Part shown: positions 20,342 to 25,700 of the stretch, in pieces
Numbering within the stretch: the first letter of the stretch is position 1
Layout: every line of letters starts with the position of its first letter
Sequence record: MT446392.1
Origin: Escherichia virus TH15
Length of the DNA stretch: 64,000 nt
Reading direction: 5' to 3' (one strand)
The notes under the pieces: generated by a model
Told to the model about the DNA's origin: nothing
The model's input: the letters and a program-made list of their open reading frames with translations, nothing else
Database searches by the model: none
Made by a program: the position numbers and the translations under genes

Positions 20342-21127
20342 TTATTCATCAAAGAAACTATCGTCAAAGCTATCCTGTTTTGCCTTAGGCGGTGACTCGA
20401 GCCCTCGTCCATTCTGCACAAAATATGGTTTAACATATTCAGCTGCTTCTGCATTAATCTCATCAGATTCTGCATAAGGGATATCACTGATATCTGTAAG
20501 GCCATCGATATTGTGGATTGGTTGCAAATCGAGCTCACTGAATTCTGGAATATTAATACCTTCATTTCGTTGCAATTCAGGTTTAAGCTCTTCTCCGGAG
20601 TAAATGTATTTGCTCGCGGTGATTTTACGGATGGCGTTTTGACCTACCTGATAGAACGGGTCATAAGGCTGTACCCAGGTTATTTCGAACAGACTGTTAT
20701 CGAGAGGGAAATAAATCAAATCCCCTGCAATAGGTTCGGTGCCGTTGCATTGATGTTTAAACAGATTAGGGTTAATCGACACTGTGATTTCATCATTCAC
20801 AGTCATACCAAATTTACTGAAGATGGAACCATCACCCTGATAAGCATCGAACGTATCCAGATAACCAGCAAATTTCCATGCTTTATCAAATTTGCTCTGG
20901 AGGTCTTCGCCGAATAACAAATCTGGTTTAACGAATTGTCTTGGGATGTAATAGAGAGACATTCCGCGCATCTGAATACTTTCAGCAACAATAGCATCGG
21001 CTAAAGTCTGGGTATTTTCATGATGCATAAAGTTTACATAAGGGTTCAATATCTCTGTGGCATTGGTATTGTCATACCCGGTCCCGTCTTCGAGCCGGGC
21101 GAATAAGTTCGCGTCATATGTAGCCAT
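20342..21127 (-). CDS. 14: gp14 neck protein
   Basis: 261 aa; synteny between 13 and 15. Confidence 0.88.
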
Positions 21128-22065
21128 TAGCCCACCAATATAGGAGTCGGTGCATCCAGCAGGTCAAGTTCTTCGCGGAGACGTTCTTTTTCCATACGAG
21201 CTTCTTCGATTAAACGAACACCATCGACCGTAACTCCACCTGGCATCATCATCCCTTGGTGTTTAGCCAATACGTTGCCGTTAACTTCCTTAACAAGCGC
21301 CGTGGCATAGTCTTTCACCCAACGGTTGTTATATGCACCATCTTGAAGCCCAAGGTCCTCGCCAGCTCTCATACCGCTTATTCTGCGTGCCGGGTTATCC
21401 CACTGTGCACCGGCATTCCACGGATTATCACAATCAGCCGAGGTAAAACCATAACCAGCTGTATTGCCAACCATTGAATCCACACCGTTATATGATTTGG
21501 TATAAACTTCAATTACAATCACATCCCCTTGACGGAAGTTGCCCATAATTTTAAGTTGTTCGGTATCATCGTTATACCAGTAATCCGGAAGCGGAACCAT
21601 CAGGTCTTGCATCATCGAACGATATTGCATAAGCTGTGTAAAATAACCAAGGTCTGCACCAAAGGCATTTGGACCAAAGCTATTACATGAGCTACCCATC
21701 CCACCGTTAATCCCGGCAAGTCCCAGAACGAAATCTGTAAACCATGGATATGTGGCTTGCCCGTCCATTGAAGTTAATGAACCGACGTTAGTACGAATAA
21801 TCTGCGTTACTGCAAAAATATTACGTCCTTTTAAATCGAAAACACCATCGCGGAATTTCTGTTGTGAAACTTCATCATGACCGATATAAAAAGCCTGATA
21901 ACCTTTGTTATATCCATTATAATGATATTCACCGTATAATTCTAATGCACGCTGGATGCAATCATAGACTTGGTCGGTCGTAACTTCGATATTCGTGATT
22001 GGAGCACCAAGACGACGAAGGATTGCATCTTTTAATTGTTTCGGGTTGTATGATTCAGTTGCCAT
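21127..22065 (-). CDS. 13: gp13 neck protein
   Basis: 312 aa; [32 protein letters not shown] matches T4 gp13. Confidence 0.93.
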
Positions 22066-22083: not shown

Positions 22084-22091
22084 TATTTATA
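22084..22091 (-). promoter_or_regulatory. T4-type late promoter TATAAATA upstream of gene 13
   Basis: 19 nt upstream of ATG at 22065. Confidence 0.6.
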
Positions 22092-22093
22092 CG

Positions 22094-22118
22094 AAAAAAG
22101 GGCCGAAGCCCTTTTGTT
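22094..22118 (-). terminator. intrinsic terminator downstream of wac (GGGC-ttcg-GCCC plus T6 on minus strand)
   Basis: Hairpin read on minus strand directly after wac stop. Confidence 0.65.
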
Positions 22119-24141
22119 ATGGTCCAACAGTCACGAATGTAGACAAAAGAACCCATGCATTATCAACAAGCACGTAAGGGAGACCATCAGCCGCAGGAGC
22201 GACAGGAGGCCTTTTGGTGAGCTCTGTTTCCAAGGCTGATACTTTACCTTCCAAAGTAGTTATCTTCGTCTCGGCTGCATCCAGGCGACCAGGGAGCGGA
22301 GTTACTGTACCTTCAAGAGTTGTCACACGATCAGTTAACGGTGTAATTTTTGCAGTATCGAGTTTAATTGCAGTGATTTCCCCTTCCGCCGAAGTCATTC
22401 GACCGGTCAAGGTTACCAAACCGCCTTTGTTTGTTTCGATATTTGCTTTAATGGTAACCAGCTCACCTTCAACATTGCTAACGTCTAAAGCTAAAGCAGT
22501 GACATCATCATCGGTCGTAGATGTTTTAGTTTCCAATGCGGTTATTTTACCATCAACAGTCGTATCCTTCGTTTCTAATGCAGTAATTCGACCATCTTGT
22601 TCCGTATCTTTATTTTGCAGAGCGAGAACATCTGCCTTAATATTCGTAACGGAAGTGTTCAATGCACCATAACGAGTATCTAACGAACTGATTGCCGTAT
22701 CATTATCATCGACACGACCAGTTAATGTTGTTACGCGTCCATCAGTTGTTACCAATGAAGCTTTAACTGCATCAACTTCGGTTGTGGAATCGATAATTTC
22801 AGACCAGGCACCTTGCTTGCGACCGTATAACTTGTTGTCCAATGGCGCATCGTTCAACTTGGATGCCATCAACATATCCAAGTTAATTACGACTGGAAGA
22901 ACACCACGTTCAGCCACAGTAGCACCGTTAGGGTTAGTCCCGTTCATCTGGCTAGTTAAAGTCAAAATAGAACCTTTCATACCAGTGCTATTTGTACCAA
23001 TTTCAGCCTGCACATCCTGAAGACCTGATGCAGTTTCATTAGCCAGCGTAGTGGTTGCATTCAACTTATACGTGATGGTGTTTGGCTCCGGAGATTGCTC
23101 TGTACCGATTCTCTGAGAAAGCCATGCAGTGGTCCCGCGTAAACCGGAGCTTGAATCCTGACCAACAACAGCCTGCAATCCATTAACATCCGAGCGCAAA
23201 GCACTGATTCGACCATTAATTGTTAATGGTTCCAGAGCGGTGCCGATATCAGCTTCGACCTTAGTAAGTCTTGGTTTGATATTCGCAATATCTGTTTCAT
23301 TGACCGAAACACGCCCACCAAGATTTTCAACGCGAGTTGTAATTGCAAGCCCGGTACCAAAACCGATAGCTTCTTGAATATTGGTAATATCTTCGTCAAT
23401 TTCGACTACTTTGTCATCAAGAGTATTCAGTCGAACAAATACAGCCGGTTTACCTACTGCTAAAGTCGACTCACCCAATTCTTCGCGAATTTTAATTACT
23501 TTTACGTTAAGAGAACCAACATCAGAATCATGGTAATTATCCTCAAGAGTCTTAATACGAACTCCATGGGCAACAATAGCCGAACTGTTATCGAGGATAC
23601 GACGTTTCATGCCTTTTGACGGATTACCAATAACCTGTAGACCATTTATATCCTGGTCAACATACTGACCCAATTCATTTTTAATCCATACAAGGTCATT
23701 ACGAACTGTGCGATAATACGAATCGGTTAACGGGTCATAAACACCAACATCTTCTTTTAACTTTGTAAGACCTTCGGATGTTTCGCTTGACAGCAATTCG
23801 GTATTAAATTGACGTTCATCAAGGTCAAGAATATCCGTACGGTTTTTTTCAATTTGCTTAACAACTTCCGTGTTAGTTGTTATATCCAAAGCTTCCTGGA
23901 TATTATTGACGTTATCAATAATTTCATTGATTTTTTCTTTAGATGTATTTGAGTTGTCGTCGAGTGTATCTACGTTTATTTGAACGCCAACCGCGGCGGC
24001 GTTCAAATTACCATCATGACCATATTTGGTACTGGCCGCAGTCATACAATCGCCGTTTTGTATCCAACGAATTCTCTGTTGACCTTCGTCTGGAATACCG
24101 ATGCTATACGGCAGTTCTTTGAGACTGAGTTTATTAATCAT
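22117..24141 (-). CDS. wac: fibritin (whisker/neck fibre), long coiled coil with C-terminal foldon-like end
   Basis: 674 aa; heptad-rich; C-terminus GLPYVLVDNAWVLLSTF resembles T4 foldon; synteny 12-wac-13. Confidence 0.88.
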   Translation of the reverse strand: MINKLSLKELPYSIGIPDEGQQRIRWIQNGDCMTAASTKYGHDGNLNAAAVGVQINVDTLDDNSNTSKEKINEIIDNVNNIQEALDITTNTEVVKQIEKNRTDILDLDERQFNTELLSSETSEGLTKLKEDVGVYDPLTDSYYRTVRNDLVWIKNELGQYVDQDINGLQVIGNPSKGMKRRILDNSSAIVAHGVRIKTLEDNYHDSDVGSLNVKVIKIREELGESTLAVGKPAVFVRLNTLDDKVVEIDEDITNIQEAIGFGTGLAITTRVENLGGRVSVNETDIANIKPRLTKVEADIGTALEPLTINGRISALRSDVNGLQAVVGQDSSSGLRGTTAWLSQRIGTEQSPEPNTITYKLNATTTLANETASGLQDVQAEIGTNSTGMKGSILTLTSQMNGTNPNGATVAERGVLPVVINLDMLMASKLNDAPLDNKLYGRKQGAWSEIIDSTTEVDAVKASLVTTDGRVTTLTGRVDDNDTAISSLDTRYGALNTSVTNIKADVLALQNKDTEQDGRITALETKDTTVDGKITALETKTSTTDDDVTALALDVSNVEGELVTIKANIETNKGGLVTLTGRMTSAEGEITAIKLDTAKITPLTDRVTTLEGTVTPLPGRLDAAETKITTLEGKVSALETELTKRPPVAPAADGLPYVLVDNAWVLLSTFVTVGP

Positions 24142-24149
24142 TTTGGTCC

Positions 24150-25700
24150 TTAATAGTGAACTTTAATAATATAGTTTAAAGACATATTCCAAGGTCTTGT
24201 TTCATATCCGATAAGGCCTTCACGGTTTAACGTTCCGAGAGAATCACGACCACCACCTAATTCAAATCCATCATTTGTGAAATACGAAGCATTATCCCAG
24301 TCTGAATATTTTCTGGTACCAAGATAACCTTGATAAACTGACGCACCAAATGGAGCTTCATTGCGTTGATATTCGCCCCAACCTCCGGCGTGTTTGTGAT
24401 AAGACATCTGCTGAGCTTGTACACCACCGACCCAAGAACCATCACAACCAACACCCAAGCGGTCTTTACCATAACCATCTTGACCCCGGTTATTCAGAAT
24501 ATGACCGCCTGTACCTGCGCCACGAACGAATAAGCCGCGCATATCAGGAACGCCAGGGTTATTCCAGTCACCACCAAAACGAGCCCCAACAGTATTTCGA
24601 TAGTCAGGGAATTGGTCGCCATTAACAGTACCACCATGACACATAATCCAACCAGGAGGAGCGCTATCACCTGCAAACATCATCACGGTTCCGACAGGAA
24701 CACGTTCGGAAGCATAACGCTGTGTAGAAAGTAATTGACCGCCCATATGAGCCGTAGTGGAGTCAAAATTGCCAGTGGAAATATAATCTAAAGAAAGACT
24801 TCCATTAATTCGTTGACCACCTCGAGTGTTAATTACATCTGCGTTCCAAGCCAGGGCTCCAGCTCCATCACCACCAGGAGCAATCCCAGCCTGAGTAGTT
24901 AATCTAACGACGCCACGAATATCGGTTGTAGCACCACGACCATTAAGAGTTGCACCAGTTACCGCAACACCATCAGCACTGTTATTGATTTCTGACTGAT
25001 TACCCAGACGAATAATCCCTGCGCGGTCTTGTGTTGCTGTACGAGCATTTAAACCAGCCGGAGAAATCGCCACGCCGTCACCCAGAGTTCCTGCTTGTAC
25101 TTCAGCATTTGTAGCAATTCGCACTAAACCGGAAACAGTTTGTGTAGCAGTTGAATAAGTCGGAAGAGCGGCGGTTGCTTTACCAATTGCCAGAGCAACT
25201 TTCAACGGAGACATGGCGGTTGTGTCGTCTGTACCAGCTAAAGCTGCATCTTCGGTGCTAATACGAAGAACACCCAGATTATTTTCGGTACCGACACGAA
25301 CAGTAAAAACATCATCAATTGTTGCTTTTAATGAAGATGGAACAATAGCTGCATCGGTTACTGTCCCTGCTATTGCTTCGGCATTAGTTGCATAACGGGT
25401 AATACCTACATAAGTTTCGGTAGCTTGTGTAGGGATGTCTAAACGAGCTTTTAAGGTCGCCGGAGTAACAGCAGAGTCTGGACTAATACCATCAATAACT
25501 TCTTGTGTGGTGGCTAGTCTGATGAGTCCTGCGGTCGTTTCGGAAGAGGCTGGGATATATCCATCTAACGCAATTTTATTAAGAGACCCCAAAGCCTCTT
25601 GTACGTTGGTAACAGTCGACGGGAAAGCTGTTCCCGTCGGGTCGAATGTTTTATATTCGGATTTATCGCTAATGTGTTTTAGCGTGTTAGTCGTTGTCAT
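24150..25700 (-). CDS. 12: gp12 short tail fibre
   Basis: 516 aa; synteny 11-12-wac. Confidence 0.9.
   Translation of the reverse strand: MTTTNTLKHISDKSEYKTFDPTGTAFPSTVTNVQEALGSLNKIALDGYIPASSETTAGLIRLATTQEVIDGISPDSAVTPATLKARLDIPTQATETYVGITRYATNAEAIAGTVTDAAIVPSSLKATIDDVFTVRVGTENNLGVLRISTEDAALAGTDDTTAMSPLKVALAIGKATAALPTYSTATQTVSGLVRIATNAEVQAGTLGDGVAISPAGLNARTATQDRAGIIRLGNQSEINNSADGVAVTGATLNGRGATTDIRGVVRLTTQAGIAPGGDGAGALAWNADVINTRGGQRINGSLSLDYISTGNFDSTTAHMGGQLLSTQRYASERVPVGTVMMFAGDSAPPGWIMCHGGTVNGDQFPDYRNTVGARFGGDWNNPGVPDMRGLFVRGAGTGGHILNNRGQDGYGKDRLGVGCDGSWVGGVQAQQMSYHKHAGGWGEYQRNEAPFGASVYQGYLGTRKYSDWDNASYFTNDGFELGGGRDSLGTLNREGLIGYETRPWNMSLNYIIKVHY

Follow-up and report, generated by a model that had tools for sequence, protein, structure and literature searches.

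A second, internal foldon-like motif and a coiled-coil spacer in the long fibritin of Escherichia virus TH15

What makes the neck-whisker protein, fibritin, of Escherichia virus TH15 so much longer than that of phage T4, and is the difference spread along its shaft or confined to one place? Its gene, wac, is on the minus strand of a 64,000-nucleotide (nt) stretch of sequence record MT446392.1 (the whole of that stretch being referred to here as the window), and re-reading of the open reading frame (ORF) gives 674 amino acids (aa) plus a stop codon, just as originally predicted. T4 wac is 1464 nt in NC_000866, so that the 487 aa given earlier for its product are also correct, and the window Wac is 187 aa longer. 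The answer reached is that the additional residues form a discrete distal module opening with an internal foldon-like hairpin (at about residues 429-450), with no general stretching of the T4-type shaft, and very probably the protein is a neck-whisker protein of the published JS98-type architecture, in which a coiled-coil spacer connects two foldon motifs. The form is genuine, but two-knot fibritin was already described years ago, and the present case is an ordinary one.

Assignment of the gene to fibritin, as in the original prediction, is borne out from several directions. Pfam PF07921 (Fibritin_C) is matched at 61.1 bits, well above its threshold of 21, a phmmer search of PDB recovers T4 fibritin (2bsg/3j2o) at E 1.3e-87, and BLASTP against T4 Wac gives E 1e-92, with the N-terminal domain, the location between gp12 and gp13 and a predicted segmented coiled-coil shaft also being those of a fibritin. 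What is held in common with T4 fibritin (NP_049771; 1AA0, 1AVY, 2BSG, 3J2O) is the N-terminal domain, the foldon, the gene position, the downstream gp13 and the segmented shaft, where identity is 37% over about 410 aa. At the DNA level the wac gene matched 25 phage records at 90-98% identity in a megablast search, all of them from Gaprivervirus-type coliphages except one from a Yersinia phage; with the wac genes of Gapriverviruses identity is 92-98%. Judged by its sequence, the window is from a Gaprivervirus, a VR7/VR26-like T4-type coliphage.

The location of the extra residues is given by the alignments that flank them. With phmmer, T4 residues 4-421 align to residues 5-416 of the window protein and T4 420-485 to 603-671, and the difference from T4 is therefore a single block, residues 417-602 (186 aa). 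This insertion, in comparison with the single-foldon T4 protein, comprises a foldon-like hairpin together with coiled coil. About 88% of it is helical or heptad-regular, the internal hairpin making up the remainder; the earlier claim that the additional length is coiled coil thus holds for most of the block, the second foldon-like hairpin having been overlooked. In an alternative BLASTP alignment the T4 foldon, 457-477, pairs not with the C-terminus but with query residues 427-446, ASKLNDAPLDNKLYGRKQGAW.

In the N-terminal domain (Table 1), homology to T4 Wac starts at residue 5-7, residues 1-50 align to T4 4-50 and residues 5-84 to T4 4-82, the N-terminal fibritin fragments 1ox3/2ibl are matched at E 2e-14, and P11, P17, Q21, R23 and W26 are invariant across 41 fibritins. 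The shaft that follows is colinear with T4 residues of about 50-421. A heptad scan calibrated on shuffles places 72% of residues 81-416 in heptad-positive segments, interrupted as in T4, and AlphaFold2 (AF2), run as a monomer on a 41-sequence alignment with only secondary structure being used, yields 11 helices with loops between them in residues 51-416. The distal spacer is 100% heptad-positive in the same scan, with a single register unbroken from about 443 to 600, and its AF2 helices are 452-573 (per-residue confidence, pLDDT, of 84-96 over 470-560), 596-612 and 616-641. For the terminal foldon, a hidden Markov model (HMM) derived from 50 fibritin C-termini gives E 6.7e-18 over residues 638-671, alignments extend to T4 459-485 and PDB 1avy, and AF2 returns a beta-hairpin with strands 656-659/662-665; that the C-terminus is foldon-like had been anticipated. 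In T4, E461 and R471 form an inter-chain salt bridge. The terminal foldon of the window protein differs from that of T4 by one extra residue (AP-AA-DG) and by V and L in place of these two. More broadly, V and L are present at the E461-R471 positions of the terminal foldon in Gaprivervirus and Dhakavirus, the internal motif keeping D and R there.

The internal motif has its own signature. Fibritin_C covers residues 369-449, at profile positions 3-90 of 93, and the foldon HMM, by which T4 Wac has one foldon only and the window protein two, scores residues 425-448 at E 2.7e-3 (9.9 bits), with relatives at the equivalent position ranging from 1e-6 to 2e-11. AF2 strands are at 439-442 and 445-448. 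By the same model, 35 of 126 sequences have two or more foldon-like motifs, and in 33 of these 35 the Trp of the first motif is at 446-451, which coincides with the position of the terminal Trp (447-453) in the shortest fibritins. These short single-foldon proteins (455-466 aa, the 457 aa of Pectobacterium phage PM2 being an example) are colinear with window residues 1-450, and their terminal Trp matches the internal Trp 446, beyond which the window protein runs for another 224 residues. The distal module, then, starts where the shortest fibritins end. Distance from foldon to foldon is 50-337 aa across the 35 proteins, and 217 aa in the window. Other arrangements occur. The Wac proteins of Serratia phage CHI14 (P0038, 584 aa) and of P0040 (550 aa) have four to five tandem foldon-like motifs (at about 428-582) that hardly any coiled coil separates, unlike the JS98 type. 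In the Yersinia phage MHG19 fibritin (P0078, 593 aa) a foldon-like motif is at 429-453 (E 8e-9) and the C-terminus is not foldon-like, so that its sole foldon appears to be internal.

The counterpart in the literature is JS98-type fibritin, in which a coiled-coil spacer that varies in length lies between two T4-like foldon motifs, and which is regarded as interconvertible with the T4 type by one deletion or duplication; both types are reported to trimerise via foldon motifs alone, the JS98 type without extra chaperones (Letarov & Krisch 2013, PMC3797505). In keeping with this type, the window protein has two foldon motifs, a variable coiled-coil spacer and full-length homology to JS98 gpWac. 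The end-to-end alignment covers residues 1-672 at 48% identity and 65% positives (E 0.0), the order of domains is equal, foldon motif 1 is at about 425-450 in each, conservation extends to blocks of the spacer such as TDDDVTALALDVS, and the terminal foldon is nearly identical. The two phages are from different genera, JS98 being a Dhakavirus, and the window protein is the shorter (674 vs 751 aa; 217 vs 289 aa from foldon to foldon). Repeats in the distal spacer are of the 'EITAIKLDTAKIAPL' type in the window (one copy) and of the 'LETGLAAVKVESDKVAG' type in JS98. Inspection of the wac-gp13 gap revealed no dedicated chaperone gene downstream of wac, unlike the Aeh1 type. A further likeness is that spacer residues 441-605 (22327-22821, minus strand) match the trimeric coiled coil of P22-like tail-needle gp26 (4LIN, E 4e-9). 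It is confined to the coiled coil of gp26 (PDB 4LIN, 3C9I, 2POH), and could reflect shared ancestry of trimeric modules or compositional convergence. Membership of the tail-needle gp26 family itself was considered and rejected, as the window protein is without the N-terminal tail-plug domain, and has a T4-type neck/baseplate context and a different virion location.

How unusual is the length? A protein search over 5.8 billion proteins gave 180 matches at E <= 1e-5, and among the best 120 of them fibritin lengths are 455-799 aa. Annotated long forms include those of JS10 (799 aa), VR5 (768 aa), JS98 (751 aa) and dhabil (720 aa), with 100% query coverage and about 50% identity. The length had originally been treated as notable; with fibritins of 720-799 aa already annotated and the two-foldon type both published (PMC3797505) and common, it is not. 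More instructive is variation among close relatives. One 90%-identity cluster spans alleles of 541, 543, 558, 560, 674, 722, 748 and 789 aa, and named phages have Wac of 528 (VR7), 541 (UPEC01), 722 (VR26, YP_009214008.1) and 789 aa (MN01, QIN95418.1). The VR26 and MN01 proteins belong to the window's cluster and have identical architecture, with wac DNA identities to the window of 97.7% and 92% respectively. They differ from the window in the number of copies of a 72-nt unit, encoding EITAIKLDTAKIAPLTxRVxxxEx, of which there is one copy in the window, three in VR26 and six in MN01 (at 72-nt spacing), the window being without two or five of them. Motif counts of 1, 3, 4 and 6 go with proteins of 674, 722, 748 and 789 aa, and between window and VR26 DNA there is a clean 144-nt in-frame indel bounded by the repeat. 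Tandem Repeats Finder reported no repeat in the window wac gene, because the unit is present there as a single copy and is visible only in VR26 and MN01. In the 541-aa alleles a 399-nt deletion has a junction (…GATGCAATTAAA…) that joins two similar heptads. As read from these sequences, part of the length variation among close relatives (528-789 aa) is due to copy number of the 72-nt repeat. Separately, near-identical relatives (P0001/P0123/P0127/P0129 vs P0125/P0122) have annotated N-termini that differ by 17 aa (558/560 vs 541/543 aa), which suggests that wac start-codon calls are inconsistent in deposited genomes.

With T4 and JS98 fibritins as the guide, the foldon would nucleate and register a parallel trimer, with zipping running from the C-terminal foldon towards the N-terminus, which would be anchored in the gp13/gp14 collar. 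Re-registering or clamping of the proximal shaft is the probable task of the internal foldon-like knot. The additional 187 aa would be a 'foldon + coiled coil' module that was appended, or one that was deleted in T4. Within the genus, spacer length probably shifts by in-frame recombination, both between 72-nt units and between similar heptads, to give alleles of 528-789 aa, the window carrying a single-repeat 674-aa one. Coiled coil has a rise of about 1.5 Å per residue. Some 164 extra helical residues and the hairpin knot, if fully extended, would add roughly 25 nm to the 53 nm of T4, making longer whiskers, about 1.5 times those of T4, plausible. The T4 fibritin length is 530 Å (PMC3004832), and the distal end would bind the long-tail-fibre kneecap, aiding fibre attachment and holding fibres retracted under unfavourable conditions (PMC3004832, PMC3797505).

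Two explanations would make the length itself an error. If the start codon were mis-assigned, the real protein could be T4-sized, and annotation in the family is indeed non-uniform, with starts in some relatives being 17 codons apart (558 vs 541 aa). For the window gene this is scarcely credible, the weightiest point being that the extra length is C-terminal (417-602) and not N-terminal. Moreover, a Shine-Dalgarno sequence, TAAGGA, is beside the ATG, and because of an in-frame TAA 4 codons upstream the ORF cannot begin further upstream, nor can it have the 17-aa N-terminal extension; the next in-frame ATG, codon 33, is inside the conserved N-terminal domain and its use would cut that domain, which T4 homology spans from residue 5-7. 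The original prediction had itself named a wrongly placed start, with a real protein of T4 size, as the weak spot, and the Shine-Dalgarno sequence, the upstream stop and the N-terminal homology dispose of it. Similarly, the long ORF might be an assembly or sequencing artefact, arising either by fusion with the ORF downstream or by collapse or expansion of a repeat, given that the region is repeat-prone and that differences among relatives come in multiples of 72 nt; regions of this kind can be mis-sized by assemblers. Yet an identical 674-aa protein is encoded both by a 94.8-kb contig of an independent Logan assembly, SRR11772944, and by an NCBI record of 171,591 bp, 7 contigs carry a second 674-aa member, and more than 30 homologues of different genera have the two-foldon architecture in one frame. 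As gp13 follows after a terminator and late promoter just as in relatives, and the single repeat copy in the window leaves nothing to collapse, such an artefact is very improbable.

A less easily dismissed alternative accepts the length and questions the motif: the internal 'foldon' would be a decayed relic or loop without a trimerising role, and the protein a plain longer single-foldon fibritin in which only the terminal foldon matters. One foldon suffices for T4-type fibritin, long fibritins in which the terminal foldon alone is detected also occur (548-662 aa), and in the internal motif N replaces the Gly of 'DG' and the end is …WSEIIDS vs …WVLLSTFL, without the C-terminal hydrophobic strand/helix. 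Against this, the motif retains equivalents of T4 foldon A6, P7, D9, Y13, R15, K16, G18 and W20 (BLASTP alignment), AF2 gives a hairpin there, and its position is near-fixed while the distal part varies by up to 287 aa, which argues for purifying selection on it. The single-foldon alternative is accordingly considered unlikely, and the preferred reading is still that of a JS98-type, two-foldon fibritin. Several observations nevertheless count against that reading or its extension to whisker function. The internal motif is weak in the HMM search and does not end in the hydrophobic 'VLLSTFL' of genuine foldons, and could therefore be a degenerate relic. The AF2 monomer has a predicted template-modelling score (pTM) of 0.23 and pLDDT is <50 for residues 574-614, so that helix within 574-614 and straightness of the rod are tentative. 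Finally, across the three genomes compared the lengths of gp34 and Wac do not co-vary, gp34 being 1289 aa with a Wac of 487 aa in T4, 1291 with 528 in VR7 and 1337 with 722 in VR26. The terminal foldon of long alleles may therefore not reach the tail-fibre site used in T4, and the idea of a longer proximal tail fibre matching the longer Wac was rejected for these three genomes.

The wac reading frame, from ATG at 24141, ends in PPVAPAADGLPYVLVDNAWVLLSTFVTVGP followed by the stop codon, and the gene order by Pfam and locus labels is gp10-gp11-gp12-wac-gp13-gp14 (Table 1). Between the gp12 stop and the wac ATG there are 8 nt. On the other side, the gp13 ATG is 51 nt past the wac stop, and the space between is occupied by a hairpin directly after the stop and then by TATAAATA, a putative late promoter with the T4 consensus sequence. 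The hairpin folds at -11.2 kcal/mol (z -3.4), with none of 200 shuffles being equally stable; a scan for consensus terminators and promoters did not flag it. The gp13 and gp14 genes of the window adjoin, sharing base 21127, with no insert there; in VR26 a SegC-like homing endonuclease gene is present between them (L002:5713-6294).

Table 1. Coordinates in the window of wac, its encoded domains and neighbouring features
Feature	Coordinates	Strand	Residues or size	Basis
wac (fibritin) ORF	22117..24141	-	674 aa + stop	ORF call, PF07921, T4 fibritin match, JS98 Wac alignment
N-terminal neck/collar attachment domain	23992..24141	-	1-50	Alignment; function inferred from T4 (PMC3797505, PMC3004832)
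T4-colinear segmented coiled-coil shaft	22894..23991	-	51-416	Alignment, heptad scan, AF2
Short helix + internal foldon-like beta-hairpin, NDAPLDNKLYGRKQGAWSEI	22792..22893	-	417-450	Pfam, BLASTP, foldon HMM, AF2
Distal coiled-coil spacer (most of the extra length)	22207..22791	-	451-645	Heptad scan, AF2, gp26 match, JS98 homology
72-nt repeat unit, single copy, EITAIKLDTAKITPLTDRVTTLEG	22309..22380	-	588-611 (24 aa)	Comparison with VR26, MN01
Terminal foldon	22120..22206	-	646-674	Foldon HMM, alignments, AF2
gp12 stop overlapping wac ribosome-binding site, TAAGGACCAAA before ATG	24142..24152	-		Sequence reading
Terminator-like hairpin, AAAAGGGC-TTCG-GCCCTTTT then TT	22094..22115	-		Sequence and folding
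Putative T4-type late-promoter box, TATAAATA	22084..22091	-	18 nt upstream of gp13 ATG	Sequence
gp12	24150-25700			Pfam
gp13	21127-22065		312 aa	Without Pfam match here; PF26809 Phage_T4_gp13 label on identical locus L008
gp14	20342-21127			Pfam

A division of labour within the whisker can be envisaged, in which the internal knot, at its fixed distance from the neck, would be the keeper of whisker geometry and of the long-tail-fibre contact, with the distal coiled coil and terminal foldon being a separately evolving, repeat-driven and length-variable 'antenna'. This is a long shot. If true, the role of the antenna might be tuning of environmental sensing or contact with the cell surface. Beyond annotation, where the gene is to be labelled a JS98-type (two-foldon) fibritin with a length within the known 455-799 aa, significance is small. 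The natural occurrence of a foldon-like hairpin in the middle of coiled coil is of possible interest to protein engineers using foldon tags. In practice, assemblers and identity-based clustering can be confused by the wac spacer, which is repeat-prone and polymorphic in length, and its natural alleles that differ only in spacer length are a ready series for the effect of whisker length on tail-fibre retraction.

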